DNA of 64,000 nucleotides from Escherichia coli (lineage in GTDB: Bacteria > Pseudomonadota > Gammaproteobacteria > Enterobacterales > Enterobacteriaceae). Below, in pieces: positions 754-24,324 of the stretch. The position numbers were made by a program, and so were the translations under genes. Where the stretch lies: NCBI RefSeq assembly GCF_050920415.1, contig NZ_CP169309.1; one strand, 5' to 3'. Positions within the stretch are counted from its first letter, which is position 1; the number at the start of each line of letters is the position of its first letter. Below the pieces are notes generated by a model. It was not told the DNA's origin. It saw only the letters and a list, made by a program, of their open reading frames with translations, and did not search any database.

Positions 754-765
754 TATTTATCTCCC

Positions 766-2547: not shown

Positions 2548-2567
2548 TTTATTCCTACCTCTATTAA

Positions 2568-2584
2568 TTGGAAAAATTTTCCAA
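2568..2584. promoter_or_regulatory. putative AllR operator upstream of gcl (palindrome TTGGAAAAATTTTCCAA)
   Basis: Perfect 17-bp palindrome seen directly in sequence about 20 bp upstream of the gcl start; a near-identical palindrome is in the allS-allA intergenic region. Confidence 0.6.
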
Positions 2585-2598
2585 CTTTCAAATTTTGT

Positions 2599-2624
2599 CA
2601 AAAAAACCCGCTCCGCAGAGCGGG
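2599..2624 (-). terminator. intrinsic terminator downstream of allR
   Basis: GC stem CCCGCTC/GAGCGGG followed on the minus strand by a run of 7 T, just after the allR stop codon. Confidence 0.65.
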
Positions 2625-2636
2625 ATGCGACAGACA

Positions 2637-3452
2637 CTATGGATGTGCTTTCAGTCCCAACGCCGTGCTGATATCGCGGGCGGTGTCTCTGACCAGCTCA
2701 CCCTGACTGACAAAACGATCTTCTGTCAGTCTTGATGAAGGCCCGGAGATGGAGATAGCGGCAACAACGCTACCTACATCATCGTAAATTGCTGAAGCTA
2801 TGCAATTCAGACCTACAACATGCTCTTCTTTATCTACGGTATAGCCCAGTTCACGCGCTTGTTCCAGGTCCTTCAGCAAGGTGGGCATATCCACAAGCGT
2901 AGTTGGCGTAAACTGCTGCAAACCGGTTTGCAGAATGATGCTCATCAACTCCTCTTCCGCCAGCGGATAAAGCAGCGCTTTGCCCGCACCGGAAGCATGC
3001 AGCGGCAGACGACTGCCCAGCGGCGCACACATCCTGACCATCGATTTACACTCTAATTGACCAATTAATACTGCTTCATTGCCGTTACGAATCGCGACAT
3101 TGACCGTTTCGCCGGAAAGTAACATCAGGCGGCGCATAAATGGCCCAGCGACGGAGAGGACATCGCGGTTATGGATGTACGCCGCACCGACGTTAAAGAC
3201 ACCTAATCCTATATGCCACCAGCCTAACTGACTGTCCTGATAGACAAAATCCGCTGCCTGTAAAACCTTCAGCAAGCGAAAGGTCGTGGAGAGCGGCAAA
3301 TCCAGATTGAGAGAAATATCGCTAACCGACGAACTTCCCCCACTTTTTTCCAGATATTGCAGAATCGCAATTCCCCGCTCTAACGCCTGTGCGCCCTTTT
3401 GTGCCACAGGCTCCGCCTGTCCTGGCCTGCCGCGCCGTCTAACTTCCGTCAT
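2637..3452 (-). CDS. allR: IclR-family repressor of the allantoin regulon
   Basis: 271-aa ORF with N-terminal HTH and IclR-type effector domain; position between gcl and allA. Confidence 0.9.
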
Positions 3453-3529
3453 ACCTACGTTAACTCCGACCTACAAGTGAGCATAAACAATGAACAATTA
3501 GTTTATCTTATGCAAGTCGGTTGCAGGCG

Positions 3530-4012
3530 TCACGCAAAACAGAGTTCCTGTTCAGGAATACTTTCAACATCACAGTTGTCACTGCCGCCGCGATCGATGG
3601 TCAGAAAATCGGTGACGCGCTGCCAGGCGAAAAGTGGGTGATGCCAGACGTTACGATGGTAATTCACTCCCTGTTCACCGTTGGTAATAAACGCCCGCAG
3701 GGTTGACAGGTCTGGTTTGTCGTCACCTAACGCCACGACCACCACAAACACTTCCCCTTTCATCGGAATAAAGGCCTGAGTGCCCAGCGGATGACGTTCG
3801 AGTTCGTGAATGGTCAGCGGCAGATTCGCCGGTTGCGCGCGGTTAATGCTGATAAGCGTACGGTCTTGCTCAAGAATCTCAACCAGCGCCAAATCGTGGT
3901 AACGCTCCACCAGGCCATTGTTAATATGGAAAAAATCCCGTTGCTGCGTTTCGATTACGTCGCCATAAGCACTAAAGGCTTCCTGACTTAACGGTAATAC
4001 CTGAAGTTTCAT
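3530..4012 (-). CDS. allA: ureidoglycolate lyase
   Basis: 160-aa [24 protein letters not shown]...; conserved neighbourhood with allR and allS. Confidence 0.88.
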
Positions 4013-4116
4013 CTTTTTGTCCTTGTAACATAATTCCGTTCAACCACCGCCGACCGGTCAATGTGGTTCAATAACAGGCAATCTAAAACCTTAAGAGAAC
4101 AACATCAATACAAATG

Positions 4117-4133
4117 TTGGAATATTTTTCCAA
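4117..4133. promoter_or_regulatory. putative AllR operator in the divergent allA-allS intergenic region (TTGGAATATTTTTCCAA)
   Basis: 17-bp inverted repeat seen in sequence, near-identical to the site upstream of gcl. Confidence 0.6.
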
Positions 4134-4240
4134 AACTAGATTTAGTCCACAAATCACACAGGGTTATCATGTAAAAATACTGATAAATCAGAGGATAAGA
4201 AAATCACGCAACTTGCGGATTTAAAAGGGGATACCTGAAG

Positions 4241-5167
4241 ATGTTCGATCCAGAAACCTTGCGGACTTTCATTGCGGTTGCTGAAACAGGAAGTTTTTCA
4301 AAAGCGGCAGAACGATTATGTAAAACCACGGCGACGATCAGTTATCGCATTAAACTTCTGGAAGAGAATACCGGAGTGGCGCTGTTTTTCCGCACGACTC
4401 GCAGCGTGACGTTGACAGCGGCTGGCGAGCATCTACTTTCTCAGGCCAGAGACTGGCTGAGCTGGCTGGAAAGTATGCCCAGCGAGCTGCAACAGGTGAA
4501 TGATGGCGTGGAACGCCAGGTGAATATTGTCATCAACAACCTGCTCTACAACCCCCAGGCCGTCGCCCAGCTGCTGGCGTGGCTGAATGAACGTTACCCC
4601 TTTACCCAGTTTCACATCTCCCGACAAATCTATATGGGCGTCTGGGACTCGCTATTGTACGAAGGTTTTTCACTGGCTATCGGCGTCACGGGAACCGAGG
4701 CGCTGGCAAATACCTTTAGTCTTGATCCCTTAGGATCGGTGCAATGGCGCTTTGTCATGGCGGCGGATCATCCGCTGGCGAAAGTTGAAGAGCCGCTAAC
4801 AGAAGCGCAGTTGCGGCGCTTTCCGGCGGTTAATATTGAAGACAGCGCCCGCACCTTAACCAAGCGCGTCGCCTGGCGTTTGCCGGGGCAAAAAGAGATT
4901 ATTGTTCCCGATATGGAAACGAAAATCGCCGCCCATCTGGCGGGCGTTGGCATTGGTTTTTTGCCAAAATCACTTTGCCAGTCAATGATCGATAATCAAC
5001 AATTGATCTGCCGGGTAATCCCAACGATGCGCCCTCCTTCGCCATTGAGTCTGGCATGGCGCAAATTTGGCAGCGGCAAAGCGGTAGAAGATATTGTGGC
5101 CTTGTTTACCCAGCGCAGGCCGGAAATCAGCGGATTTTTAGAAATTTTCGGCAACCCACGCAGTTAA
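4241..5167 (+). CDS. allS: LysR-type transcriptional activator of allantoin catabolism
   Basis: 308-aa ORF with N-terminal LysR HTH ([20 protein letters not shown]) and LysR substrate-binding domain; divergent from allA. Confidence 0.88.
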
Positions 5168-5220
5168 AAATCAAGTTTCCTTGCGCGTTGGCGCGTAAAA
5201 TAGCGTGCAAGCTGATTTGA

Positions 5221-6330
<1,110 letters not shown>

Positions 6331-6364
6331 TGAGGGACACGGTGCCTGTTTCATAAAGATCATT

Positions 6365-6783
6365 TATACCCGTCATACTTCAAGTTGCATATGCGTTGGC
6401 AAGTTATTCAGGGATAGCCGGATGAGTGACATCACCATCCGGCTTAAGATTCCATACTATAATAATTCGAGTTGCAGGACAAAACGCCAGTGGCGTTTTG
6501 AACAACGCTTGCGTTGACCCTGAAAGGGTGAGGCCTAAGGCCGAGTAACGCGACAGGCGAGTGACAAATTCGTCGGGAACGAATTTGACCAGCCTCTGGC
6601 TGGCCTTCGGTGAAAGGCATCCTGCCTTTCAGTCATCCCCAGTCACTTACTGGGGTGAGCGACAAATCCGCATGGAGCGGATTTGAACGCTGCTTGCAGC
6701 GGTCCCGTAAGGGGTGAGGCCCATGGATGGGCCGAATAACTCGCAGACGCAGCACATGCAACTTGAAGTATGATGGGTATATA
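6365..6783. repeat. composite ERIC/IRU-like intergenic repeat with terminal inverted repeats and an embedded REP-like hairpin
   Basis: About 30-bp terminal inverted repeats (TACCCGTCATACTTCAAGTTGCATATGCG at 6365-6395, reverse complement at 6747-6783); internal ACTGGGGTGAGCG and GCAACTTGAAGTATGA match the ERIC consensus as I recall it; hairpin GCCGGATGAGTGACATCACCATCCGGC at 6418-6444. Confidence 0.5.
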
Positions 6784-6939
6784 CACAATGAACTTCAAGA
6801 CACTTGCTTCGGTATCTGGAAATTATCATTAATTCTGGATGCGACCAGCCTTGCTATATCTGGCAATGTTTCTTCAAAAACGTCGATATTGTATCCCAGA
6901 AATCTCACACACTGCTGAACCGGCATGTTCATTAATTAT

Positions 6940-7351
6940 TTATCCAGGCCATTTGCAATCAGTACCATCACTATTATATGCCTCAATATTTTCTTCAAAC
7001 TCAGTTATTTTTCCACTTTTCGATTTATAGTAAGAGCTATTAAATCTTGCACCCTGCGTAGCAACAACATACAATCCGTTGACTTTACATCCTATAACCT
7101 CACTCCATGTATATGTAAACTCTGAAGGTCTATCATCGAAAGTCACTTCCAATTTTTTCGTAAATGCAAGAGGTATGAAATTTGAGGATATTCCATAAAC
7201 CACATAACCTAAAACAACATCACCAGAAGATACTTCAACAAATTTTAAATTTATCTTCCCGAAACTAAAACAGCCAACCGTAGTTTGTTATTTAGCAAAT
7301 AAGAAAAAGGGCATCAAACAAAAAATTAAAACAAATAATTTAACTTTCATA
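6940..7351 (-). pseudogene. small secreted-protein gene interrupted by an in-frame TAA after the signal peptide
   Basis: ATG at 7351 encodes MKVKLFVLIFCLMPFFLFAK then TAA; the same frame continues open into ORF 6940..7203 (…VVYGISSNFIPLAF…). Confidence 0.35.
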
Positions 7352-7703
7352 TCATTTACTCCAATTCAGTTATTCGCCTCTGTACAAAAGCACACACAGA
7401 TTTTGAATTAATGGCGTACAAAAACATAATCGGATGAAAATACCACACCGGAATATTACTGATATAGCGGGATCTTACTCATTCGCTAGACTGAAAATGC
7501 AATTGAACAGAAATTTCTTACTAGTGTTTTTATCAGATGATCGGAAAGGAAATCAACTCACTGGCAAGTATCATAAGCTCAAATTGGCATATTGTATATT
7601 CCCATAAATACTTTTATTTTTTGATTAACATACTCAATACTACACATCACTAATTGAGAGAAGATTAACTTCATCATCTTTGATTAGGTACGTTTTTTAA
7701 TTT

Positions 7704-7922
7704 TCAATGACGCATCATAAAAAAGGGCTTACCAAGTTTAACACTAATAACAGGATATAAAGAAAACATATTGCTATATGAATCCTTTGGCGATGTTTTG
7801 GTTATGGTAATCTTTCCTTCTTTCAAGTGCTCTGCTATTATATGAAATTGAATCGGTCTTGTTGCATCACTTACCCGCAATGGATTACCAGCGTAAGCTT
7901 CATATCCTCCACCATTATTCAT
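7704..7922 (-). other. gene fragment in AT-rich debris (open frame extends upstream to 8020 without a start codon)
   Basis: ORF track plus manual frame extension; no start or RBS, low-complexity AT-rich context. Confidence 0.2.
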
Positions 7923-8268
7923 ATGTAAAATAGTGTATTCGTCATTTAAAAATGACTGCTTACTATCGTAGACTTGGTAGTATATATTACTTATATCAAG
8001 ATAAATTACTATAGAGATATACTTAATTTTTCATTTAGCATTAATGATGTATCCATGGAATCTATACATCTTTCAATATCAGTTATTTTTTCTTCTATAT
8101 ACGTAGCATAATTTTTTGGCACTGGCGTGTTTAGCCCTCATATACCCTCATTAACTAAGACACCATTTTGCTTGCTTTTTACATTGTAATAAAGACAATC
8201 AATATTGAATTTATTATTTTTATATTTCAGTGTTGTATATACAGTAAAATCATGCAGCGAACGCCCAT

Positions 8269-8544
8269 CTAAAACAATTGCGGGCGTGTCAGAAAAAAGT
8301 CAAATGAATAAGATGGATTATTTTCATAATCAGTCATAAATTTCATCTTTCTTATTTCATGATCAACGATCGCATAGATCTCATGATTAGATTCATCATA
8401 TCCATAAATGATTTCACCACCAGTACTGGCAGTAGCAGTAGCACTACTACAAATCAACATAATTACAAGTACATATCTAGTCAAGTTGAAAATCCTTAGG
8501 GGCAGATGATGTTTTTTCCAAGATGGATTGAAATTTTTCAACAT
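8269..8544 (-). CDS. hypothetical small protein with hydrophobic N-terminal segment, possibly a degraded or orphan immunity gene
   Basis: ORF track; segment YVLVIMLICSSATATAS resembles a signal peptide; AT-rich context. Confidence 0.25.
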   Translation of the reverse strand: MLKNFNPSWKKHHLPLRIFNLTRYVLVIMLICSSATATASTGGEIIYGYDESNHEIYAIVDHEIRKMKFMTDYENNPSYSFDFFLTRPQLF

Positions 8545-8854
8545 AAGAATCCATTAATTGCTTCTGATATTTTTCATTAATTATTTTTCGCGTATTATTA
8601 TATTAAATTTTATCACTGTTAATATATGTGGGGATTTTTACTCGTAAAAATCCCCGCCTCAATTCCCCAAATCATAATTGATACAGGACACAACTCTAGC
8701 AATGGTATCGTGAATAGTTTTCTTTAATAAGGCACGTCTCAATTCTTGAACATAAATTCGAATTATTTAGTAAAAAAACATCATCCCTGGGAGTATTACC
8801 TATTTTTGTATAATGCTATATTTATAGTAAACAATTCACAAGAAAATATTATTA

Positions 8855-9805
8855 CTAATATTTATATTCCTCCCACTGAGCACCGTATCGATGCTTTAAC
8901 AGTTTAACTTTAATTTCATCATATGTTTTAACTTTACTACCATCAATCTTAAGGCGAATTTTATTCGAGGTGATATCAACATAATTTCTATTTTCCCCAC
9001 CCGCAGGGAAAAAATCAAACATAAAATTAGACATGTTTTGTTCTTTTTTCATGAGAGCTCCATACTCACACATGTCATTTATATTTTGTATGTATGGAGT
9101 GCCCCCCTGACATGATGGATAATGAAAATCAATTATAGTAAAAAGCGATTTATTGACACTCCTCTGAAAGAACCACTTATTATTTACAATACGATAGGTT
9201 AAAGATTTAAATGTATACCAGTGACTTCCTGGAAGAAAAGAGTAAGCTTCATTAAGATTGACAGTAAATACCTTAGTTTCTCCAGAGGAAAGCTTTACCC
9301 ATTCTGATTTTATATCACAATTATCGCCCATACCAAAATAAAGCTCATCATTGGCATCATCCTCAACAAAATCACATATATTGGTTGCGGAAGGACGGAA
9401 TTTCAGATAGAAACCACTTGTGGATATTAAAAAAGAATCCTCACATAAAGGAGAAAAAAAATAAGGCTCCGATGTGTGTGAGGAGATAGGTAATAATCGT
9501 CTATGAATGAAATTTTCGCTACCCCCCAAATTTGTAAAACTTATTTTTGCTAACACACGAGAGTCAATTTGCTTAACGGTTAATCTAACATCAACATCAA
9601 ACATATTACGATTTGGCAATTTTTCCTCGACTCCGTCAGTGTAATGTGATAACTCAAGTATATTGTCCTCAAGAGTCATCGAATTTAATTTTTGTTCGGA
9701 AACATATTGTGCAATAACCTCATCATTGCAGTATCCATGAAATGAAATAAACATTAGCACTGCAATCTTAACTAATCTCAAAATACTTTTCAATATTGTA
9801 TGCAT
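8855..9805 (-). CDS. putative periplasmic immunity protein (paralogue of 11491..12312) for the HExxH effector
   Basis: N-terminal signal-like segment MHTILKSILRLVKIAVLMFISF; shares SFLPGSHWYTFKSLTYRIVNNKWF with [24 protein letters not shown] of the other immunity candidate; start chosen at the internal Met. Confidence 0.5.
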   Translation of the reverse strand: MHTILKSILRLVKIAVLMFISFHGYCNDEVIAQYVSEQKLNSMTLEDNILELSHYTDGVEEKLPNRNMFDVDVRLTVKQIDSRVLAKISFTNLGGSENFIHRRLLPISSHTSEPYFFSPLCEDSFLISTSGFYLKFRPSATNICDFVEDDANDELYFGMGDNCDIKSEWVKLSSGETKVFTVNLNEAYSFLPGSHWYTFKSLTYRIVNNKWFFQRSVNKSLFTIIDFHYPSCQGGTPYIQNINDMCEYGALMKKEQNMSNFMFDFFPAGGENRNYVDITSNKIRLKIDGSKVKTYDEIKVKLLKHRYGAQWEEYKY

Positions 9806-10567
9806 TATTAAAAACCAGCGGGTCATGTTTTGATTTTAATTCTTTTGCATTGGCAATTTCTCTTTTTTTTCCCAAATCGTTACTGCTTAATCCACCATAA
9901 TACTGTTCTCCATCCCAGATAATAAAAAGGTGAGATAACTCATGGCATAATGTGGAGACTCGAGAGTTTTCTCCCGTTGGATTTTTACATGTGAAATTTT
10001 GTAAGATATCTATAGATATTCTTTCTCGATACTCTAACTTTAAAAGTTCAGCCTTCGACTTATTTTTATACTCACTACTTTGGTATTGGGGCCGATTTAG
10101 ATCTATATGAGTCGTCTGAGCAGCCGGTATACGGGCTGAACCATTGACTAAATTGGTATAATTTTTAAAATTGCCATATATTAGTTGTACATTATCTTGC
10201 GTTCGAGTTTCAATGATCAAGCTATCACAAATCATGATCATTCTGTAAACCCCCTCTTTTATAAAAGTATGTGCGTCAATATTCTTGGTTTGTGGAGTGA
10301 AGTTCCCATTATTATCTGACTTTTGACAAGGAGCATAGTGTTCCATTGTTATAATAGCATCACCTGGTAATCCAAATATATCTTCAAAATTTTTCTGATC
10401 TGCTGGTGTCCATGCTTCCAGATTTTTGCTCTGATATTCAATACTCGCTTTGTTTCTTCCAAAGCAGGCGTTATCATGTTGTAAAATTGATCAGTAACCT
10501 TTGCTTCTTTTTTACATATATTGCCTTTTTGAGTTACCCCTTGTGAACTTCCTTTGTTATTATTCAT
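9768..10567 (-). pseudogene. frameshifted paralogue of the vgrG-linked HExxH effector
   Basis: N-terminal part in ORF 10349..10582 (KEAKVTDQFYNMI versus KEQKITDHFKIMI in the intact copy), remainder in a different frame 9768..10346 carrying STLCHELSH and NNAYNIEKYFEI; frames differ at about 10346-10351. Confidence 0.5.
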
Positions 10568-10975
10568 AAACACCTCCCTCAATCATATCTATACTTTGAT
10601 GCAATAGCCTGACTTTTATCGTCAGCTCACTGTCAGTGATAAATATTTCCGTATACCCATCCTTATCCGTTTCCCCTCGCGCTTGTGTGCCGTCCTCAAA
10701 AAAGGCAATGTAGCGTGTTTCTGAATACGGTATCCCGTCATCGTCTGTAAAATGAAACTGGAGGGTGTATTTCTCAGGTTCATCCTTATCTTCATTGTCG
10801 TTCCCAGAATCATTTCCATCGCCACCACCGACCCCGCCATTGCCTTGCCCGCCCTCTGCACCACCATCTTTATCACTACCTTCATCCGTCAGTGCCTCCA
10901 GCACGCCCGGTTGCAGTGTCGGTACCGGAGTCCCCGGACTACCCCCACCATTCAGATTTATCTTCGGCCCCCAGG
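10560..10975 (-). pseudogene. vgrG 3' fragment (C-terminal about 135 codons of a second vgrG allele)
   Basis: Nucleotide-level similarity to the 3' end of the intact vgrG (for example CCGTCCTCAAAAAAGGCAATGTAGCG..TTTCTGAATACGGTATCCCGTCATCGTCTGTAAAATG), breaking off at about 10975 where the H-repeat fragment begins; encodes DEPEKYTLQFHFTDDDGIPYSETRYIAFFEDGTQ. Confidence 0.6.
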
Positions 10976-11340
10976 GAAAGATTACGAAAGCCCGCTCCCC
11001 GCAAGGACTGACGCCAGATACTTTCTGTCCATGGCTGCTTTTCGCATCTTACGTCTTAACCCTGCCTTGAATACCTTATCATTCGTCAAAATATTAATAG
11101 CGATGTGCCGTATCCCTGAAAATAATTCTGCTGCATTTCCTCTTCTTATTTTGCAGTCGTCTTCATTCATTACCACGTCCAGACGCCAGTGCAGCTTATT
11201 CTCCACGTGCCCGTGGTTTCGGATTGCTGTGGCGAACTTCTCTGCGGTTAAATCAGCAGAACTGATATAATATCTGACCGTCATTTCTGGCTCTTTCTTT
11301 TGTTCTGCTATTATGGACCGAAAGGAGACTGCCACGCATA
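10976..11340 (-). mobile_element. H-repeat (ISAs1-family transposase) 3' fragment
   Basis: ORF 10982..11335 encodes ...[71 protein letters not shown]..., which I recognise as the C-terminal third of the Rhs-associated H-repeat protein; no intact transposase. Confidence 0.6.
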
Positions 11341-11490
11341 ATTTCTTCAGCCCTTTCCATTCAAACGTGAAATCAATAAGTTCATCAGGGACATCGCAAA
11401 CAATATGAAGACGGATTTCTTCTCTGCCGTGACTAAAATGCGAATTATTTAGTACAAAAAAAGCGGCGCACCTTGTTCTTTCCCAGATTC

Positions 11491-12312
11491 CTAATATGGC
11501 AACTTTAAGTTATCGCCGTCTATACTTATAGAAATTTCATCAGGGGTGACGTAAATAGAATTTTTTTCATCCTCAATTGCCCATAACTGATTAATAAAAA
11601 AGTGTTTTTTTTCATCTAATAACAAATTATCACATGTAGTAAAATTATTAATATCAAAAAGATCATCAGCACAATTAATTTTTAAATTTAAAAAATAAAG
11701 AAAAATATTATTGATTGATTTGAGTGTAAACCACTTGTCATTAACAAATTTATAGCCAGATGATTTTATAAAATAATAATTATCTCCTGGTATAAAGGCA
11801 TACATATCATTTAAGGTTATACTCAACAAAAAACTACGACCTGGTTTAATAGTATTCCACCGTTCAGGATTCGTATTAATTTCAAAAGGACATGAACCAC
11901 CTAAGTAGTCCAACGTGATATTCCCAGAGTTGATTCTGAATGGTTTTTTGCATATTGCATCATATTCATCTCCTTTTCCATCTTTTACTTTCATAGGTAG
12001 ATAATATTTAGAAAAAAAATACGTGGTAGAGCTTTTGTTAGTAAAGGTTATGTTAGCAAAAATCCTGTTATTTTTTTTACTCATAGCTAATTGAGCATTG
12101 ACATCCGCTATATAATTTATATGATTACATTTTTTCTTACACTCATCATAATTTTCGATAGGATAAATTAATGGCCTTCCTTTGATATCTCTCTCAAGCC
12201 CAAACCCGTATTTTTTTATTAAAACCATTTCATCTGCAGTCGATTGAAAGGAATAGAAAAATATAATATTTACGATTGTCATTATTATGATTTTTTTTAT
12301 AGCTTGCAGCAT
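11491..12312 (-). CDS. putative periplasmic immunity protein for the adjacent HExxH effector
   Basis: 273-aa ORF directly downstream of the effector; signal-peptide-like N-terminus [26 protein letters not shown]; paralogous to 8855..9805. Confidence 0.5.
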
Positions 12313-12335
12313 TAATATATTTCTCGACTTATTAG

Positions 12336-13127
12336 TTAATGGAGAAGTGCTTTTTCTAATTCCGCTATTTTTTTCTTAACTAAATTGCTTAATATTTCAT
12401 CATTAATCGAGTCTATCTCACTTTCAATTAATCTTATTTCAAAATATCTTTCTATGTTATATGCATTCTCAAATATTTGATCTTTTTGTTTAGAGATCAG
12501 TTTAGTTGCAATACGGATATGTTCGTCATATGAAACTTCATCCTCTTTGCACGTTGAATATTTATCAGTAGTTGTATAATCCTGTGACCACATACCACCT
12601 TTTTTATTATCCCTATAATACCACTGAATATGAGACATTTCATGACATAAAGTAGCAACATGAGAATCCTTTCCCGTTACTGGATTTTTTTTGCCATCTC
12701 TATACTCAAATTTTGCGCCTATGTTAATTATATAGGGCATATCCTTACTTGGGCTGACGAATGCTGCAAATTCATTACAACCTGTATAATTTATAAAACT
12801 GCTCATTGTTAAATCATTAGCTATAATCATTAATCTTCTCACACCATCCATCATAAGAAATCTAGCATTCATGCGCCTGCCTGTATTATGTCCATATTTT
12901 CTTATATTAACTTCCTTATTTCCTTTAACACCAAAGATCTTACTGAAATCATATTCCTCCTGTGCTCCCCATCTCAAAAGATCATCTGCTCTTTTTATCA
13001 AAACCAACTTTTGTGCCTTACGAGCCTTATCAATCATTATTTTAAAATGATCAGTTATTTTTTGCTCTTTCACACATTCTTCTGGCTCTGGCTTTGGTTG
13101 TCCAGAAGTTTGATTATTATCGTCCAT
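12336..13127 (-). CDS. putative T6SS effector, zincin-like metallopeptidase (HExxH motif), vgrG-linked
   Basis: HEMSH in ATLCHEMSHIQWY; no signal peptide; probable start MDDNNQ at 13127 overlaps the vgrG stop by 11 bp; conserved C-terminal ENAYNIERYFEI shared with the paralogue. Confidence 0.55.
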   Translation of the reverse strand: MDDNNQTSGQPKPEPEECVKEQKITDHFKIMIDKARKAQKLVLIKRADDLLRWGAQEEYDFSKIFGVKGNKEVNIRKYGHNTGRRMNARFLMMDGVRRLMIIANDLTMSSFINYTGCNEFAAFVSPSKDMPYIINIGAKFEYRDGKKNPVTGKDSHVATLCHEMSHIQWYYRDNKKGGMWSQDYTTTDKYSTCKEDEVSYDEHIRIATKLISKQKDQIFENAYNIERYFEIRLIESEIDSINDEILSNLVKKKIAELEKALLH

Positions 13128-15522
13128 AGTGTCCTTCCATTGAGAGAAAATCATCATTCGCAAATAGCAACTTCACTTTAATTTCATGTTTGCTAGATAC
13201 AAAAAAACGCTCTGTATACCCCTCTTCATCCGTTTCTCCGCGGGTCTGCGTGCCATCCTCAAAGAAGGCAATGTAGCGGGTTTCTGAATACGGTATCCCG
13301 TCATCGTCTGTAAAATGGAACTGGAGAGTATATTTTTCAGGTTCATCCTCATCGTCACCTCGATCATCACCACCACTTCCGGTCACGCAGTTCCCTCCAG
13401 AGTTTTCATTTTCTTCTCCGGAATCACTGCCATCACCACTCTTCTCATCCCCCAGTGTCTTCAGCACCGCCGGTTGCAGCGTCGGTACAGGCGTCCCCGG
13501 ACTGCCTCCCCCGTTCAGATTTATCTTCGGCCCCACTATATCCACGCCCCCTGAATGGATGACCACAAACGAGCCACCCAACTTCAGGCTTATCCGGCTG
13601 CTGCTCTCCAGCACGATATCCCCGTCCACCTTTATCCCCAGCGCACCACTCACCTTCCTCGCCAGGTCGCCTTTCACCTCCAGGCTGTGTTTTCCCTCCA
13701 CCAGGCTGATGTGGTTTCCTGTCGTTTTGTGCTCCTGCTTCCCTTCCACCGTCACCTTTCGGTCGTTTCTGACGTACAGACCGTCATCGTGGCTGACGTT
13801 CACCCGCCGGTCGTTCGTCACCTTCAGCGTCTGGTCGTTGCGCACCGTGATGCTCCGGTCATGGGCCACCGTGATACTCTGGTCGTGGCCCCCTTCTTTT
13901 CTGGTGCCGACCTCAACCGTCTGCCCCTTCACCACCCTTATCTTCTGGTCGTTACCGATGGTCTCCGTATGGTCATGCTTCACGTCCGTCGTCCGGTCGT
14001 TAAGCACCTCCGTGTCCATGTTCTTCTGCGCGTGGATATACACCTGCTCACTGTCCGTCGCATCCTCGAAACGCAGTTCATTAAAGCCGCTTCCTTTATA
14101 GGTCTTCGAGCGGATGGTCATCTGCGTCCGCGTGCCCGGTAAATCCCCCGGTGAACGGTTATCTTCATGGTAGGTCCGCCCCGTCACAATGGGCTGGTCC
14201 GGGTCTCCGTTCAGAAAGTCCACTATCACTTCCTGACCCACACGCGGTATCGCCAGATTGCCGAACCCCGGTCCCGCCCATGCCTGCGACACCCGTATCC
14301 AGCATGAACTCTCCTCCGTCATCCCGTGATAACGGTCCCAGTGAAACTTCACCCGTACCCGGCCATGCTCGTCGCAGAATATCTCCTCGCCCTTCGGCCC
14401 GGTCACGATGGCACTCTGCGGGCCGTCCACCTTCGGCTTCGGCAGCGGCGCGTGACGCCACGTCCTGTCTGCCGGTATCACCTCAAACTGGTTACTCAGC
14501 GTCGTCCCTTCACCGTGACTGCCGTGCAGCGCCTGCGGCTGTTCTCCCCGCAGTGTGCTTCCCACAACCTGCCATTCCCGGTTCAGCGTATCCGACGGGT
14601 GACCCGACAGGGTAAACCGCGTTCCCGGCCACAGCCGCGCCGTGTTACACACCCCGCTCGCCGTCTCCGCCCCGTTCCGCCACCCTTCCGTCTGGTAACG
14701 CGCAAAATCCTGGCCATGCTGCTCATCCTTGAAACGCCCCGGATAATCAAATATCTCGTACTGCGTTCCCTGCCCGTTCAGGCTCTCCCCGTCATGGCTG
14801 TAGTACCCCGGCCACCCCGGCACTTTAAACGTATAATCCTGCGTCTCCACCGACGCCACGCTTATCTGCGCACGGTAACGAAACTCACTGATGTACTCCG
14901 TCGTTCCCCCGGTCGTCGTGTTCGGGTTAAACGCCAGCGCCCCCATTCCCGTCAGCCCCGCCACGTCATCACACACCGCCAGCTTCTGTTCCGGCCCGTC
15001 CTGACTGCAGCGTTCATAAAAGAAGATACCTTCCTCCGCCCACAGCCGGGTCAGGAACGCCAGGTCGCTCTCCCCGTACTGCACGCAGAACTCCCGCGCC
15101 GGATGGTCTTCATAAAACAGCGGCATCCACGCCGTCACCCCGTTCTCTCTCAGAAGCTGTGCTGATATCGTCCCGATGTCCTGCTGCTGGAAGATACGGA
15201 AGTTCTGCCGTAACCCTGCCCGCCACAGCGGCGGGCTGATGCTCAGGGAATAACGCATCTGCCAGTCGTTGTTCTCACCGAGCTGCACCTCCGTCACGAT
15301 ACCGCTGACGTAACGCTGTGCAGTGTCGCCCTGCCAGACCGTCAGCACCGCGCTTTTCTCCAGAAAATCCTCCGCCGTCAGGTCGGACAGCCCGCTGGCG
15401 ATATCCACATCCAGGATGAACGGTGTGCAGTGGTGCTGGTACAGACGGAAGCTCACCACCGCCGTCGCCATCTCCACGATGTCGTCCACCGACAGCGTGA
15501 AACGTAATCCTTCTGAGGACAT
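13117..15522 (-). CDS. vgrG: T6SS spike protein VgrG with C-terminal extension (Gly/Asp/Glu-rich linker plus TTR-like adaptor domain)
   Basis: gp27/gp5-like core (LRFTLSVDD..., octapeptide beta-helix repeats KIRVVKGQTVEVGTRKEGGHDQSITVAHDRSITVRND...); likely start MSSEGLRFTL at 15522 (ORF track begins at 15555). Confidence 0.85.
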   Translation of the reverse strand: MSSEGLRFTLSVDDIVEMATAVVSFRLYQHHCTPFILDVDIASGLSDLTAEDFLEKSAVLTVWQGDTAQRYVSGIVTEVQLGENNDWQMRYSLSISPPLWRAGLRQNFRIFQQQDIGTISAQLLRENGVTAWMPLFYEDHPAREFCVQYGESDLAFLTRLWAEEGIFFYERCSQDGPEQKLAVCDDVAGLTGMGALAFNPNTTTGGTTEYISEFRYRAQISVASVETQDYTFKVPGWPGYYSHDGESLNGQGTQYEIFDYPGRFKDEQHGQDFARYQTEGWRNGAETASGVCNTARLWPGTRFTLSGHPSDTLNREWQVVGSTLRGEQPQALHGSHGEGTTLSNQFEVIPADRTWRHAPLPKPKVDGPQSAIVTGPKGEEIFCDEHGRVRVKFHWDRYHGMTEESSCWIRVSQAWAGPGFGNLAIPRVGQEVIVDFLNGDPDQPIVTGRTYHEDNRSPGDLPGTRTQMTIRSKTYKGSGFNELRFEDATDSEQVYIHAQKNMDTEVLNDRTTDVKHDHTETIGNDQKIRVVKGQTVEVGTRKEGGHDQSITVAHDRSITVRNDQTLKVTNDRRVNVSHDDGLYVRNDRKVTVEGKQEHKTTGNHISLVEGKHSLEVKGDLARKVSGALGIKVDGDIVLESSSRISLKLGGSFVVIHSGGVDIVGPKINLNGGGSPGTPVPTLQPAVLKTLGDEKSGDGSDSGEENENSGGNCVTGSGGDDRGDDEDEPEKYTLQFHFTDDDGIPYSETRYIAFFEDGTQTRGETDEEGYTERFFVSSKHEIKVKLLFANDDFLSMEGHYGR

Positions 15523-15805
15523 ATAAACCCCATAGCTACCGCACTCATGGTGCAAACCCTACAGAATTATAAGAAAGACTTAAGTGAGATATCCGTCAGA
15601 TAGCAACTATTAGGAAAATATTTATATACATTTCATGAATACATTCATTAATACCGAGATGTTTTTGTCTATATAAACAGAGCAAGCTAACGTCCTCACT
15701 CCATGAAAGAAACTACGTAGGGGCCTTTCGGTCCATAACAACTTTTTCCCTGTTATATCCTGACGTTCTGGTCTACTGGTGTAGTCATGCATATTGCAAC
15801 GTTCT

Positions 15806-15915
15806 ACCCATGGAAAGATAAATAAAGCCAGCTCTCCGCAAGGACTGAAGCGAGGTGCTTTCTGTCCATAGCTGCTTTTCGCAACTTACTCCTTAACCCA
15901 ACACTGAATTTCTTA
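15806..15915 (-). mobile_element. short H-repeat (ISAs1-family) 3'-end remnant, direct repeat of 10976-11065
   Basis: About 110 bp about 85% identical to the 3' end of the H-repeat fragment at 10976..11340 (..CCGCAAGGACTGA..CTTTCTGTCCAT.GCTGCTTTTCGCA..); encodes ..[25 protein letters not shown]. Confidence 0.45.
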
Positions 15916-16055
15916 TGATTTGTCACAGTATGAACTTTTAATTTCATACATTGCTCTTTAGTCAATAGAAGAAAAATAAGCACCCTCTCCCAAACGACAC
16001 AAATAACCTGCAAATGGGAAATGACTTATTACTTAGAAATTTGCAGAGATATAAA

Positions 16056-16337
16056 TCACGAGATATATCCACCTTTTGAGTTAACAGTTACAGACGTTAT
16101 AACATTATCTTTTATCCAGATATCAACAAAAAAGTCCTTACCACAATAAAGACATTCACAATATCCTTCAGAGATAAAGTTGTCCTTAAGTTTATTTCTG
16201 GTTATATTAATAAGTTTATCGCCAGGATTGTAATGTACTAAATTTCCAGATGGCACAAACATCTCAATTTCACACTGTCCTGACGTTCCACATCGAGGGC
16301 AAACGCACCATGCTTTCAATAAATCATAATTCGACAT
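16056..16337 (-). CDS. hypothetical Cys-rich zinc-ribbon-like small protein
   Basis: 93-aa ORF with two Cys clusters (CVCPRCG and CECLYCG); located between ybbP and vgrG. Confidence 0.35.
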   Translation of the reverse strand: MSNYDLLKAWCVCPRCGTSGQCEIEMFVPSGNLVHYNPGDKLINITRNKLKDNFISEGYCECLYCGKDFFVDIWIKDNVITSVTVNSKGGYIS

Positions 16338-16387
16338 TATATTACCTTAATTTATTTCACATCAGCATCCCCCCTTGCAAACCACAA

Positions 16388-16744
16388 CTAAACTATTCCC
16401 ATAAAATACAACGAGATAATTTTACTGTTAAACGTACATTCACAAAACTCAGGGGAAGAAAAATGACCATCAGTCAAAAATAAAGATAGTTTGCTTAGTG
16501 CGTAATCAATTGAATCAAGCGACAAGTATAATTTTATTACTAGTGAGTTCTGTATCAGGACATCATTTTCATTGGGGGATTGTAAAAGTAATAAATTTTT
16601 ATACGCTACAGGTGATCTGTTTTCCAGTCTAATAGGTTTGCTTGCTTCCGTCTCCAATAAACTATAAAGAGCACAAACCATCTCATGAGCATCATCTTTC
16701 TCAAAATGTAAATGAAACCCGCCCAGAGATTTATTAGCAATCAT
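16388..16744 (-). CDS. hypothetical protein
   Basis: 118-aa ORF from the ORF track in the AT-rich island flank; no recognisable motif. Confidence 0.3.
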   Translation of the reverse strand: MIANKSLGGFHLHFEKDDAHEMVCALYSLLETEASKPIRLENRSPVAYKNLLLLQSPNENDVLIQNSLVIKLYLSLDSIDYALSKLSLFLTDGHFSSPEFCECTFNSKIISLYFMGIV

Positions 16745-16841
16745 AATACGTTTCTAAAGTTGATTTGAAATTTTGCATTTCATGCTCATCAAAAAAATAA
16801 ATATATTTTAACTACAAAGCAAACATCACAGCGCATAGCGG

Positions 16842-17057
16842 TTAATATTCTACCTTAACGACTTTCATTCCTCTTTCAATCATACCATTAATTAATTGAT
16901 AATACTCTTTATCCCCTACATCTACTATTAGAATATGTCCGGTAAGTTCATTGATGAATAAATACTCAGGTTCCTCATCTGTACCAGCATTTGAAATAAC
17001 CCAACCTGGATCAGTACCATCTATAAAAAACTCCCACTCTTTAAAATTAACACTCAT
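16842..17057 (-). CDS. hypothetical small acidic protein (possible orphan immunity protein)
   Basis: 71-aa ORF, compact acidic protein, AT-rich context next to a polymorphic-toxin island. Confidence 0.3.
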   Translation of the reverse strand: MSVNFKEWEFFIDGTDPGWVISNAGTDEEPEYLFINELTGHILIVDVGDKEYYQLINGMIERGMKVVKVEY

Positions 17058-17179
17058 TTAATCCTCCTTTTTATACTCGCAAGAAAAGGAGAGTATCGTT
17101 TCTAACTCTGAAATAAAAGTATGATAAAAGACAGGACCTGGCCTCATTGAATGTTATTTCTCAATTCTTGATAGTTTTT

Positions 17180-17280
17180 GCCGGATGCGGCTTGAACGCT
17201 TATCTGGCCTACACAATCTTGCAAAATCAATATATTGCACGCTCTTCGTAGACCAGATAAGCGTAGCGCATCAGGCAATC
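17180..17280. repeat. REP/BIME-type palindromic units downstream of ybbP
   Basis: GCCGGATGCGGCTTGAACGCTTATCTGGCCTAC and CAGATAAGCGTAGCGCATCAGGC are REP consensus-like hairpins. Confidence 0.55.
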
Positions 17281-17292
17281 TAACACCTGTCA

Positions 17293-19707
17293 TCACCCCG
17301 CAAACTGCCTGAACAGCGCCTTACCCTTAACCAGTCGCGCACCCAACCAGCCGCCGAAAAGCGACAGCAGCAGTGCACCGCTACAAGGCAGAACAATCCA
17401 CAATCGCCAGTCTGGCTCCCACGGGAAATCAAACACTTTTGATTGCAGTACCGCCAGTGCCGTTTCCGCACCAATTGCGGCCACCAGGCCGGAGACAAAC
17501 CCGAGCATGGCGAACTCACACCACAATGTCGTGCGCAGCAGTTTTTTGCCCGCACCGAGAGTGCGCCACACCACCAGCTCCTGATGACGCTGACGCATTC
17601 CCACCTGCACCTGTGCCAGCAACAGCAACATACCGCAGGCGGTGACCAGCACCACCATCACTTCCAGCGCCCGACTTACCTGCTCCAGCACCTGACCGAC
17701 CTGTTTTAAAATCGCGCCAATGTCTAACAGGCTAATGGTCGGGAACTGGCGGTTGAGTTGCGTCAACATGCCGTTGCCATTCTCCCAGCGGAAACTGGTA
17801 AGCCAGCTCTGCGGTTGCCCGTCTAATGCCCCTTCCGGGAAAATAAAATAGAAATTAGGCCGCAGACTTTCCCAGTCCACTTTGCGCAGGCTGGTCACTT
17901 TAGCGCGGAACTCCTGGGTATCGCCCATAAAGGTGACGGTATCGCCGAGGGTAACATTTAAGCGTTTCGCCAGCCCCTCTTCCATCGATACTTCATCGGC
18001 TTTTGGCGGCCAGTTACCAGCGACAATCGGATTATGATCGGGCCGCGTATTTTGCCAGGTGAGATTGAGTTCGCGGTTGAGCGCCTCATCTTCATTGCCT
18101 TCTGTCGGCTTGCCGTTAATCGCCGTCAGCCGCGCCCGCACCACCGGATAAAACGATTCCGGGACTATCTGATGTTCCGCGAGGAACGCTTTTAGCGGAG
18201 TAACCTGTTCTGTGGCGATGTTGATTAAAAAGTAGTTAGGACTTTCTGGCGGTAGCTGCTGTTGCCAGCGATCGAGCAGATCGCCACGCAACACCAGCAA
18301 CAGTGCCAGCAGCATAAAGGAGAGCGAAAATGCCGAAAGCTGGCTTAACGTTGACCACGGCTGACGTAACAGGCGGCTAACCGCCAGGCGCAGAGGCAGC
18401 GATTTCAGCGTCATGCGGCGAAGTACATTCAGCAGCATCCAGCCCAGGACACCGCACAGCAAAGCTAGTACTATCGCGCCCGCCAGCACCGCCCAGAGCA
18501 GCATACTGCCGCCCATCAGTCCGGCGAGCAGCAGCACAACCACCACACTGACAATCGGCAGATAAAACTTGAGCGGCCAGACGTTCGCTACCACATCATT
18601 ACGTAATACGCGTAAAGGCTGCGTTGCCAGCAACAAGCGGTACGGTCGTAGCCCCACCAGCAGCGAGATGACCGTCATGGTGCCAAGCGCCCACAGCCAT
18701 GGCCAGAGGCTGGCAGGCGGTAGTGCGGCAGGCAGAACGGGCTTGAGCAGTACCATCAACACGTTTTCGAACAACAGGCCTATCGCCCCGCCGGTAACGG
18801 CTGAAAGCGCCAGCACCATCAGCCACTGACCGACGATTAGCTTACGCAGTTGCGCTCGCCCAGCCCCCAGCGTTTTGAGGATCGCCACCAGATCGTAGCG
18901 ACTACGACAGTAATGATTCATCGCCACCGCCACCGCTGCCACTGCCAGCAGCAAGGTCAGAAGCGCCGAAAGCAGCAGAAACTGTTGCGAGCGTTCCATC
19001 GATCGCCCCAGCGCGCCTTCGTCCTGTTCCAGACCGTACCAGCGTTGTTCGGGTTTAAGCTGGGGTAACAACCATTTCTCATAGCCGTCGAGCTGGTTCT
19101 CGCTGCCGCCGAATTTATAGCGCCAGGTGACCCGACTCCCCGGCTGCACGGCTCCGGTTTTATCGACATCCGCCAGATTCATCATCAGACGCGGAGCCAT
19201 CTGGAAGGGGTTAAAACCGGAATCCGGTTCCTGAATCACTTCTCCGGCAATCCGCAAGGTGGCATCGCCCACGTCAATGGTGTCGCCTGTTTTCAGGTTA
19301 AGCAGTGCCATCAGGCGTGGGGCCAGCAATACGCTGCCCGCCTGCGGTTTCAGGCCAGGGGGATTGGTTTGCAGATCGCCATACATCGGGTAGATATCAT
19401 CCACCGCTTTAACATTCGCCAGCTGCGGCGTATCGCCCGCAAAAGTCATCGTGGCGAAAGTCAGCTGCTTGCCGACTTTCAGGCCGCGCTTTTGCGCTTC
19501 CTCCAGCCACGCTTGCGGCACTTCGCGTGAACTGCGCAACGCCCGATCGCCCGCCATAAACTCACGGCTTTGCTGGCTTAAGCCCTTCTCCATGCGATCG
19601 CTGATATTGCCCAGCGCCAGCACGCAGGCCACCGCCAGGCTTAGCGCCAGCCAGACAATTAATAGCGACGGCGAGCGCCATTCGCGCCAGAACCAACGTG
19701 CAATCAT
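17293..19707 (-). CDS. ybbP: ABC transporter permease (FtsX-like, two permease domains)
   Basis: About 804 aa from MIARWFWREWRSPSLLIVWLALSL; overlaps ybbA by 4 bp. Confidence 0.88.
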   Translation of the reverse strand: MIARWFWREWRSPSLLIVWLALSLAVACVLALGNISDRMEKGLSQQSREFMAGDRALRSSREVPQAWLEEAQKRGLKVGKQLTFATMTFAGDTPQLANVKAVDDIYPMYGDLQTNPPGLKPQAGSVLLAPRLMALLNLKTGDTIDVGDATLRIAGEVIQEPDSGFNPFQMAPRLMMNLADVDKTGAVQPGSRVTWRYKFGGSENQLDGYEKWLLPQLKPEQRWYGLEQDEGALGRSMERSQQFLLLSALLTLLLAVAAVAVAMNHYCRSRYDLVAILKTLGAGRAQLRKLIVGQWLMVLALSAVTGGAIGLLFENVLMVLLKPVLPAALPPASLWPWLWALGTMTVISLLVGLRPYRLLLATQPLRVLRNDVVANVWPLKFYLPIVSVVVVLLLAGLMGGSMLLWAVLAGAIVLALLCGVLGWMLLNVLRRMTLKSLPLRLAVSRLLRQPWSTLSQLSAFSLSFMLLALLLVLRGDLLDRWQQQLPPESPNYFLINIATEQVTPLKAFLAEHQIVPESFYPVVRARLTAINGKPTEGNEDEALNRELNLTWQNTRPDHNPIVAGNWPPKADEVSMEEGLAKRLNVTLGDTVTFMGDTQEFRAKVTSLRKVDWESLRPNFYFIFPEGALDGQPQSWLTSFRWENGNGMLTQLNRQFPTISLLDIGAILKQVGQVLEQVSRALEVMVVLVTACGMLLLLAQVQVGMRQRHQELVVWRTLGAGKKLLRTTLWCEFAMLGFVSGLVAAIGAETALAVLQSKVFDFPWEPDWRLWIVLPCSGALLLSLFGGWLGARLVKGKALFRQFAG

Positions 19708-20390
19708 GCTTCCTCCTGCAACTGCCCGTTCACCAGCCGTAAGCAGCGGTCGCAACGTGCCGCCAGTTGAAGGTCGTGGGTCACCATAATCAACGTGGTG
19801 CCATGTTCACGGTTGAGAGAAAACAGCAGGTCGGCAATTTTATCGCCTGTCTGGCGGTCAAGGTTGCCGGTGGGTTCGTCGGCAAACAGCACATCAGGCC
19901 GACCGTTAAAGGCACGCGCCAGCGCCACTCGTTGCTGTTCGCCGCCGGAAAGCTGTGCCGGAAGATGATCAAGACGTTTACCCAGCCCTAACTGTTCGAG
20001 CAACGCTTTCGCCCCATTACGACTTTCCACGCTACTCTCACCGCGCAGCAGCGCCGGAAGCTCGACGTTTTCCAGCGCGTTAAGGGTAGGAATTAACATA
20101 AATGACTGAAAAACAAAGCCTACGTGCTTCGCGCGCAACTTTGCCCGCGCTTCTTCGTCCATATTATGTAGCGGTTGTCCCACCAGATTTACTTCGCCAC
20201 TGCTGCCGTCATCCAGTCCGGCGAGGATCGCCAGCAACGTTGACTTACCCGATCCCGACTCGCCTACCAGCGCGATGGTCTCGCCACGTTTGACAACCAG
20301 CTCAACTCCGGTGAGGATGGAGAGTTCATGCTCCCCCTGACCGACGGACTTCTTAAGATGATGAACTTCAACAATGTTTTCCGCTGGCAT
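19704..20390 (-). CDS. ybbA: ABC transporter ATP-binding protein
   Basis: 228-aa ORF with Walker A GESGSGKST, signature LSGGEQQR and Walker B LFADEPTGNLD. Confidence 0.88.
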   Translation of the reverse strand: MPAENIVEVHHLKKSVGQGEHELSILTGVELVVKRGETIALVGESGSGKSTLLAILAGLDDGSSGEVNLVGQPLHNMDEEARAKLRAKHVGFVFQSFMLIPTLNALENVELPALLRGESSVESRNGAKALLEQLGLGKRLDHLPAQLSGGEQQRVALARAFNGRPDVLFADEPTGNLDRQTGDKIADLLFSLNREHGTTLIMVTHDLQLAARCDRCLRLVNGQLQEEA

Positions 20391-23660: not shown

Positions 23661-24324
23661 AGCGTGCTTCCTGCATTTCTCCGGCATGCGGTTGCAGTGT
23701 AATCACTTTATCCGCATGATTAATTTCGTCTTTATCGTGTGTCACCCACAGCACGGCAATATTTTGCTCGCGCACATAACGGTGGATCATCTCATTAACG
23801 TTATGTTTATTACTTTCATCCAGTGCACTGGTGATTTCATCCAGCAATAATACCTTTGGCATAAATTGCAGGTTACGAATCAATGAGATGCGTTGTTTTT
23901 CACCACCAGATAGCTCGGCGATATTCTTTGTCAAAATGCTGTCCGGCAAAGCGAAGCGTTCGAGAAAATCGAGAAAAATGGCTGGGTCAGGCTGCTGGTT
24001 ACGGATCTGCCAGGGAAAGATCAGATTATCGTATACCGTATCGCCAAACAGCGTCGGCGTCTGGGCGCAGTAAGATACTTGCTGGCGGTAGATTTCTGGC
24101 TTGAGTGTACTGACATCCTCACCTTCAAACAGCAACGTTCCGCTGGTTGGGCTGATTAATGAAGCAACAATTTTCAGCAGCGTACTTTTGCCACAACCGG
24201 AAGGGCCGGTAATTAACTTAAATTCGCCAGCACGTAGCGAAAAATTGATGTTATTAAGAATCTTCGTATCACCCGCCAGATATCCTACGTTTTGTAGCTG
24301 AAGCAAAGGACTATTTTCCTGCAT
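23647..24324 (-). CDS. fetA: iron export ABC transporter ATP-binding protein
   Basis: 225-aa ORF with Walker A GPSGCGKST, signature LSGGEKQR and Walker B LLLDEITSALD. Confidence 0.85.
   Translation of the reverse strand: MQENSPLLQLQNVGYLAGDTKILNNINFSLRAGEFKLITGPSGCGKSTLLKIVASLISPTSGTLLFEGEDVSTLKPEIYRQQVSYCAQTPTLFGDTVYDNLIFPWQIRNQQPDPAIFLDFLERFALPDSILTKNIAELSGGEKQRISLIRNLQFMPKVLLLDEITSALDESNKHNVNEMIHRYVREQNIAVLWVTHDKDEINHADKVITLQPHAGEMQEARYELA

Follow-up and report, generated by a model that had tools for sequence, protein, structure and literature searches.

H-repeat remnants among vgrG-linked effector-immunity cassettes at the RhsD site of an Escherichia coli genome

H-repeats have been known since the 1990s to associate with Rhs and vgr elements, and the Hill laboratory reportedly described E. 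coli Rhs elements with H-repeats and dissociated C-terminal tips. We considered such an association in a 64,000-nucleotide stretch of E. coli contig NZ_CP169309.1 (the window, whose coordinates are used unless another locus is named), where remnants of the H-repeat, an insertion sequence (IS) of the ISAs1 family whose full-length form is ISEc1, lie among two type VI secretion system (T6SS) cassettes. The current cassette joins an intact vgrG (vgrG1) to effector 1 and a presumed immunity gene (immunity 1), while the older one consists of a 3' fragment of a second vgrG (vgrG2), effector 2 and immunity 2. We favor, at a probability of roughly 0.55, reading the locus as a vgrG C-terminal displacement array in which the H-repeat would have supplied portable homology and would also have cut short the older gene. 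The locus refines the established picture of H-repeats and Rhs elements and opens no new one; it is an ordinary case of cassette replacement.

The "C-terminal displacement" model was put forward by Jackson et al. 2009 (PMC2935791), in a paper that mentions neither H-repeats nor transposases. As in Rhs arrays, the locus has an intact main gene followed by a 5'-truncated copy that keeps a conserved stretch, its own variable tip and an immunity gene; the downstream DNA is AT-rich, and ISEc1 copies or fragments stand after or between the units. Here the intact vgrG1 (801 aa) is followed by the 136-codon vgrG2 fragment with its own effector and immunity genes, the breakpoint falls in a conserved part of vgrG1, and the cassette is common to strains with another core. 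The chromosomal position, between ybbP and mnmH, is the RhsD site of K-12, and an rhsC-type leader lies upstream. Unlike in Rhs arrays, what was displaced here is no rhs core tip; it is the C-terminal adaptor region of a vgrG, accompanied by a separate effector gene and an immunity gene, and the island has no sequence in common with the rhsD of K-12.

Sequential displacement of T6SS effector-immunity modules has been described in Vibrio cholerae (Kirchberger et al. 2017, PMC5361080). There, as here, a conserved vgrG 5' region carries swappable 3' ends, each with the effector and immunity genes that belong to it; a new module enters by recombination within vgrG, the genes already present are shifted downstream, and the clusters are mosaic. 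The Vibrio clusters, however, retain mostly orphan immunity genes, with no IS or integrase implicated, whereas in the present locus the older cassette survives complete, from the vgrG C-terminus through the effector to the immunity gene, and the joint is an IS terminus.

Among VgrG-linked toxin/immunity pairs of the M35 type, those of the E. coli PAR locus and of P. aeruginosa (VgrG2b/PA0261) have been put to experimental test (PMC10673891). The current cassette has the same order: vgrG, a HExxH effector that NCBI names M35, and a gene for a protein with a hydrophobic N-terminus. It differs in having no separate DUF2345 gene and in that effector 1 matches Pfam Aspzincin_M35 below threshold (19 bits against a 30-bit cut-off).

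Anatomy of the H-repeat remnants

We set the limits of the 1,291-bp H-repeat from two complete copies, ydcC of K-12 and a copy in an O-antigen cluster, and used this full-length ISEc1 as a BLAST query against the whole window. The initial annotation had recognized two H-repeat remnants in the same orientation, and a repeat search, BLAST and a terminal motif all recover them close to where it had placed them. Positions 10970-11097 and 15807-15934 form a direct repeat of 128 nt with 80% identity; against ISEc1, 10971-11434 gives E = 0 and 98% identity and 15801-15934 gives E = 8e-27 and 79%, which upholds the assignment of both to the ISAs1 family. The motif ATCTTKCCMTGG occurs at 10971-10982 and at 15808-15819, against a chance expectation of 0.06 matches in the window. 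A third remnant (R3, at 8679-8790) had been overlooked. It has the orientation of the other two, the IS sense strand being the window minus strand in each case.

The terminal signatures of ISEc1 are CAGGGAAAGAT... at the 5' end and ...ATCTTGCCCTGG at the 3' end, and the remnants carry such termini. The 3' ends read ATCTTTCCCTGG (at 10971) and ATCTTTCCATGG (at 15808), and the 5' ends read TGGGAAAGAAC (at about 11485) and the terminus-like CAGGGATGATG (at about 8790). A further exact copy of the motif ATCTTTCCCTGG, at 24010-24021 on the minus strand, lies inside the conserved core gene fetA with no other H-repeat similarity around it and is probably due to chance.

The remnant downstream of the current cassette had been described as a 3' fragment of about 360 bp. 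It does hold the 3' end, but it is really an internally deleted element of 515 bp with both termini, which we call the mini H-repeat: a 464-bp 3' end (10971-11434, 98% identical to ISEc1) joined to the 5'-terminal ~51 bp (11434-11485; 85% over 11434-11487), with 776 bp missing between them. The figure of 360 bp matches only the longest open reading frame (ORF) left in it, 10982-11335, whose product scores 121 bits against the NCBIfam model transpos_ISAs1 (cut-off 70) over profile positions 204-314 of 314. The 5' end lies 4-6 bp past the stop codon of immunity 1. The 3' terminus ATCTTTCCCTGG directly adjoins the vgrG2 fragment, which places the junction at 10970/10971 instead of 10975/10976 as first proposed.

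The upstream remnant (R2) also exists as claimed, although it measures 127-134 bp (15808-15934) instead of about 110 bp. Its outer (5') end is lost and the inner 3' part alone remains; the residual peptide is 59% identical to the C-terminus of the ISEc1 transposase (E = 2e-12). R2 is 79-81% identical to every other H-repeat copy over 119 shared columns, the mini H-repeat included, where about 85% had been given for that pair. Ordinary ISEc1 copies, the mini H-repeat among them, are 93-98% identical to one another. R2 and the mini H-repeat thus belong to separate IS lineages or ages and do not form a pair from a single event. We considered conversion between R2 and the mini H-repeat, since two substitutions in the last 51 bp of the latter (10977 and 11021) match R2, but these are too few for such a claim, as nine other R2-specific differences are unshared. 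R2, its spacer and the DNA as far as 17179 occur in 3 of 5,426 complete genomes and in every checked draft contig with effector 2. In strain IH5 a similar H-repeat 3' fragment of ~126 bp (locus L004, 10001-10126) runs straight into rhsC, of which the first 297 bp are present, next to pptA. Its truncation point nearly equals that of R2, which may be a coincidence or may reflect a favored H-repeat breakpoint.

R3 consists of 5'-end pieces, 92% (8679-8717) and 84% (8725-8778) identical to ISEc1, and since it follows immunity 2, an H-repeat follows each of the two cassettes. The transposase, an ISAs1-type DDE enzyme of about 378 aa, is represented by its C-terminal 153 codons in the mini H-repeat and by about 40 codons in R2, and an intact ISAs1 transposase is absent from all three window remnants. 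They are thus, to judge from their sequences, defective relics and no active elements. No matching flanks indicative of a target-site duplication were found at the mini H-repeat, nor at the canonical copies in two other loci (L006 and L007).

Extent and source of the imported tract

The segment 11491-13540, comprising the vgrG C-terminus, effector 1 and immunity 1, is 98-99% identical in 508 of the 5,426 complete E. coli genomes; this count may be a slight underestimate, as E. coli MFDS1022581 is missing from it (the top listed genome being 042, 99.3%) though identical over 11491-13460. The tract shared with other strains extends for ~2.9 kb at 99-100% identity, from the 3' ~800 bp of vgrG through effector 1 and immunity 1 to the mini H-repeat. 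In all seven loci fetched that carry the cassette (HR12-1, 042, PapM-32-1, O145:H28, 85.0412, M-17) it lies in the yncG-yddH interval, the RhsE site of K-12, where the order is PAAR, vgrG, M35, immunity, H-repeat remnant. The mini H-repeat deletion junction and the end of the immunity gene are identical in 221 genomes, so the mini H-repeat was already defective before it reached the island. B2-type strains have the same 5' junction followed by another decay product (ISEc1 2-65 and 620-782), which shows that a full H-repeat once stood directly after immunity 1.

Identity profiles against 042 and the island strain RMDEC465 divide vgrG1 in two, a core (~13,940-15,522) of the rare resident type and a remainder (~13,900 to 13,117) of the common 042/RhsE type. 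Identity of the window to 042 is about 99% in 11500-13500 and 61-87% in the vgrG core, and at base level it is complete from about 13470 downstream. Counted per 60 bp, RMDEC465 has 0-6 mismatches to 042 between 13,100 and ~13,880 and 5-30 farther upstream. Because RMDEC465 is 042-like to ~13,880, and because the mismatches of the window at 13460-13579 and 13640-13880 look like later conversion patches, which also separate the window from MFDS1022581, the left edge of the import lies inside vgrG at about 13,900-13,940. We also considered the 65-bp stretch 13470-13534, which is unlike 042, as the left crossover or as the trace of a one-step insertion with duplication, but RMDEC465 is 042-like there, and the version in the window is a later micro-conversion patch.

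The same two segments of vgrG1, 13460-13579 and 13640-13880, stand out as dense patches of single-nucleotide polymorphisms (SNPs). A 25-SNP patch within 200 bp distinguishes the window from MFDS1022581 in an otherwise identical 12.4 kb, a 15-SNP patch also separates island strains, and at least three patch variants exist among them, that of the window being the one found in draft contig L021. No complete E. coli genome is more than 95% identical to the window over 13380-13900. The patches resemble gene-conversion tracts from other vgrG paralogues, and vgrG1 is visibly recombining.

On the right, homology to the RhsE-site module stops at the 3' terminus of the H-repeat. Beyond that terminus K-12, PapM-32-1 and O145 have pptA, 042 and HR12-1 have two hypothetical genes, and the window has vgrG2. 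When two copies of an IS recombine, the usual outcome is an IS whose flanks stem from different loci, and the mini H-repeat, with different flanks on its two sides, bears that signature of portable homology. Between the window and the PapM-32-1 copy, 11 of 25 differences fall within the last 345 bp of the H-repeat (of 2,202 bp compared; binomial P = 7e-4), a cluster that fits a crossover or conversion boundary inside the IS.

The initial annotation had proposed that IS-linked recombination delivered the cassette, with the two direct repeats bracketing it as its limits. The first part is plausible, as an H-repeat stands exactly at the joint between the cassette and vgrG2, while the second does not survive the mapping of the edges. 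Taken literally, it would make the locus resemble an IS-flanked composite transposon, with the two remnants as the ends of a mobile unit and the whole vgrG-effector-immunity module as its cargo. Direct repeats of one family do lie on either side of the cargo, and M-17 has an RhsE-site module with a 3' H-repeat piece upstream (ISEc1 25-52 and 547-1290; L030, 10693-11437) and an H-repeat remnant downstream. Unlike the ends of a composite transposon, however, both IS copies are incomplete, they differ by ~20% where ISEc1 copies are 93-98% identical, the upstream one has no outer 5' end, and target-site duplications are lacking. The shared tract begins inside vgrG, at ~13,900, and so stops about 1.9 kb short of R2, which stands within resident DNA; R2, its 163-bp spacer and the vgrG core are confined to the rare island, and the upstream flank at the RhsE site is a PAAR gene with an H-repeat 5' piece in place of R2. 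In a comparison of related genomes, none carries the bracketed segment, or is missing it, as one block, and strain 2017-02-2CC holds ybbP-proximal island DNA with neither R2 nor the module. We therefore consider delivery as a bracketed unit very unlikely; the breakpoint mapping already contradicts it.

H-repeat pieces recur at other joints. ISEc1 1-154 lies upstream of the RhsE-site PAAR gene in 042, HR12-1, PapM-32-1, O145 and 85.0412 (L008, 13581-13733), and an orphan copy of effector 1 and immunity 1 in PapM-32-1 and O145 begins right after a piece corresponding to H-repeat 1-31 (L009, 10786-10816). In fEC.1 the order is rhs, immunity, partial H-repeat, full ISEc1 with its 3' terminus abutting a 5'-truncated rhs core, ydcD and further H-repeats, such that the full ISEc1 stands between the main rhs-immunity pair and the orphan pair. 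H-repeat termini or fragments occur at most of the cassette joints examined, in several loci and strains and at vgrG and rhs alike.

Order of events and competing readings

The reading that we favor builds on the observed anatomy of the remnants, their family, how far the shared tract reaches and where it comes from, the zone of the left breakpoint and the exact junction at the IS terminus. From these we infer an order of events that would include an earlier insertion of an H-repeat into vgrG2 and a later crossover within the H-repeat. The starting point would be a rare resident island at ybbP-mnmH with an old, divergent H-repeat remnant, an rhsC-type leader and a vgrG core of its own, continued by a resident vgrG C-terminus, effector 2, immunity 2 and another H-repeat. 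An H-repeat would then have landed with its 3' terminus in the resident vgrG at the codons for GPKINLNGGG, severing the C-terminal adaptor region, and with it effector 2 and immunity 2, from the rest of the gene. Later the ~2.9-kb RhsE-type cassette, with its already defective 515-bp H-repeat, would have been copied in by a double homologous exchange, with the left crossover in the conserved vgrG repeat region at ~13,900-13,940 and the right one within the H-repeat, over at most 464 bp of ~98% identity. The outcome would be a chimeric, intact vgrG1 with matched C-terminus, effector and immunity gene, then the H-repeat, then the orphaned older cassette; R2 would be older debris of another H-repeat lineage, resident in the island and with no part in the exchange. 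That the import itself displaced the older cassette, as first proposed, goes further than these observations, as the older cassette may already have been severed by the H-repeat. In fEC.1, too, the full H-repeat abutting a truncated rhs gene, with a second partial H-repeat beside it, fits IS insertion coming first and recombination second.

Several points weigh against this order of events. Among the complete genomes and effector 2 contigs searched, none has an H-repeat-interrupted vgrG2 without the current cassette, and none has an intact series of vgrG2, effector 2 and immunity 2. Among the matches listed (24 contigs read, 10 places shown), exact copies of the effector 2 protein are confined to the present arrangement, and its nearest relatives are at most 66% identical and in unrelated contexts. 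The cluster of differences within the H-repeat could stem from later gene conversion among H-repeat copies. Target-site duplication is unusable as evidence either way, the canonical H-repeat copies inspected having none. Finally, a one-step insertion joined at the IS terminus predicts the final structure equally.

In such a single step, the cassette would have entered an intact vgrG2 by homology-facilitated illegitimate recombination, with a left joint made by crossover in vgrG and a right joint at the H-repeat terminus, made by an ISAs1 transposase acting in trans or by illegitimate joining, and the import itself would have displaced the old C-terminus and cassette. The resulting anatomy is identical, the junction does lie exactly at the IS terminus, the mini H-repeat keeps both terminal repeats, and full-length ISEc1, a possible source of transposase, is present in nearly all E. 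coli genomes. Recombination of this kind was proposed by Kirchberger et al. for orphan immunity arrays, although by the same account double homologous exchange is more frequent by orders of magnitude (PMC5361080), and transposition of the H-repeat has reportedly never been observed (PMC3032704). A 464-bp H-repeat segment of ~98% identity offers an easy homologous crossover, and the full and partial H-repeats around the truncated rhs of fEC.1 are what insertion followed by recombination should leave. We regard the single step as possible, if somewhat unlikely.

The H-repeats might also be passive passengers that pile up in the AT-rich, non-essential DNA past toxin cassettes, the exchange being unrelated to them and the terminus-exact joint incidental. 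A Phytobacter T6SS locus with vgrG, effector and immunity genes followed by truncated vgrG, effector and immunity genes has no H-repeat, and therefore displacement of a vgrG C-terminus needs no IS. The nearest E. coli relative of effector 2, whose context was read in four contigs, likewise lacks an H-repeat in both contigs tested against ISEc1. The shared tract, however, stops at the IS terminus with single-base precision, at the very point where the old vgrG is cut short, and H-repeats recur at most joints examined, as described above, so that mere accumulation seems to us quite improbable.

At the other extreme, the H-repeat might be a regular coupling device for T6SS cassette exchange in E. 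coli, each vgrG or rhs tip-effector-immunity unit traveling with a 3' H-repeat. The termini of that element, mobilized in trans even when it is internally deleted like the mini H-repeat, would form the non-homologous joint by which the resident gene is cut short and an orphan arises. We find this generalization speculative and rather unlikely; if true, it would explain by the action of an IS the illegitimate step of C-terminal displacement, which has long lacked an explanation.

The island and its two cassettes

The features discussed here are collected in Table 1. From ybbP, the minus-strand order is three small ORFs, R2, the 163-bp spacer, the 91-bp leader, vgrG1, effector 1, immunity 1, the mini H-repeat, the vgrG2 3' fragment, effector 2, immunity 2 and R3; all island genes are on that strand. 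Homology with other E. coli genomes breaks off at 6338-6358 and picks up again at 17179-17287. The island is rare, being present in 3 of the 5,426 complete genomes (its carriers include MFDS1022581, N96, RMDEC465 and draft genomes), and the vgrG core, the region 15540-17179 and the cassette with effector 2 and immunity 2 are each limited to three complete genomes. Over 1-20000 the window is 99.8-100% identical to MFDS1022581. The vgrG sequences have a GC content of 53-64%, the effector and immunity genes one of 27-34%.

Table 1. Features of the island and its H-repeat remnants (window coordinates)
Feature	Position	Strand	Remarks
Whole island	6358..17179	.	mnmH-ybbP interval (RhsD site in K-12)
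R3, 5'-end pieces (ISEc1 ~25-79, ~349-387)	8679..8790	minus	directly after immunity 2
Immunity 2 (presumed), 316-323 aa	8855..9826	minus	after effector 2
Effector 2, HExxH, pseudogene in window	9768..10567	minus	1-bp deletion near 10427
vgrG2 3' fragment, last 136 codons	10560..10970	minus	begins GPKINLNGGG
Mini H-repeat, 515 bp	10971..11485	minus	ISEc1 ~1-51 fused to 828-1291, both termini kept
Immunity 1 (presumed), 273 aa, hydrophobic N-terminus	11491..12312	minus	directly after effector 1
Effector 1, 263-aa HExxH metallopeptidase	12336..13127	minus	RefSeq WP_000342580.1 "M35 family metalloendopeptidase"
vgrG1, 801 aa, intact, chimeric	13117..15522	minus	Pfam Phage_GPD, Phage_base_V, Gp5_trimer_C
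Left crossover zone (inferred)	13880..13940	minus	from island strain RMDEC465
rhsC-type leader, 91 bp	15554..15644	minus	directly upstream of vgrG1
R2, divergent ISAs1-family 3' end, 127-134 bp	15808..15934	minus	terminus ATCTTTCCATGG; 286 bp upstream of vgrG1 ATG
Three small ORFs (93, 118, 71 aa)	16056-17057	minus	kept in island genomes

The vgrG2 fragment begins at GGGGCCGAAG, which codes for GPKINLNGGG. It is 63% identical in amino-acid sequence to the C-terminus of vgrG1, and at the nucleotide level 10648-10971 and 13211-13534 are repeats of 86-87% identity. The two effectors are 29% identical and have the HExxH forms CHEMSH and CHELSH; effector 1 has no NCBIfam match, and effector 2 matches neither Pfam Aspzincin_M35 nor NCBIfam. 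Effector 2 is whole (266 aa) in MFDS1022581 and frameshifted in the window by the 1-bp deletion at 10427, while immunity 2 remains intact beside it. The displaced effector is decaying in the window strain. Immunity 1 is 23% identical to its positional counterpart in the older cassette (E = 1e-21), and the two have no family match in Pfam or NCBIfam. The current cassette may be active, as the initial annotation called it.

The 91-bp leader has a counterpart of 91-93% identity in 3,884 of the 5,426 genomes, an unannotated intergenic segment which in both of two genomes inspected lies between ybfA and the rhsC core gene, suggesting that it may be a common leader or promoter of rhs-type genes transplanted onto vgrG. 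A scan of the region for promoters and terminators and an Rfam search gave nothing over background, and the leader itself has no Rfam match. Near the mnmH-side edge, 6472-6554 and 6654-6747 match the Rfam family AaHKsRNA22 with 36 and 25 bits, below the 39.8-bit cut-off, and we suspect that they are repeated extragenic elements instead of this small RNA. The three small ORFs have no family match in Pfam or NCBIfam.

The stretch that holds these ORFs, 16034-17179, has a 97% identical copy in strain 2017-02-2CC, which has no vgrG cassettes. We considered this strain as an example of the empty site, but there the stretch lies by ybbP and is followed by an internal H-repeat fragment (ISEc1 ~289-361), exactly at the boundary, and then by unrelated DNA. 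It is thus a separate rearrangement and does not provide a clean before/after pair. Other island strains have acquired further elements that the window lacks at those positions: MFDS1022581 has an IS2 at window position 7594-7599 (L001, 9775-11003), and RMDEC465 a group II intron between ybbP and the island (L005, 13787-15475).

The locus provides a worked example of how E. coli may renew its T6SS, in which a common cassette and its matching VgrG C-terminal adaptor appear to have been grafted onto a foreign core at a second site, while the older cassette persists downstream with an effector that is already decaying in the window strain. The joint at the H-repeat terminus, exact to the base, together with the recurrence of H-repeats at vgrG and rhs joints, makes this element a testable candidate for the non-homologous step of the displacement model.

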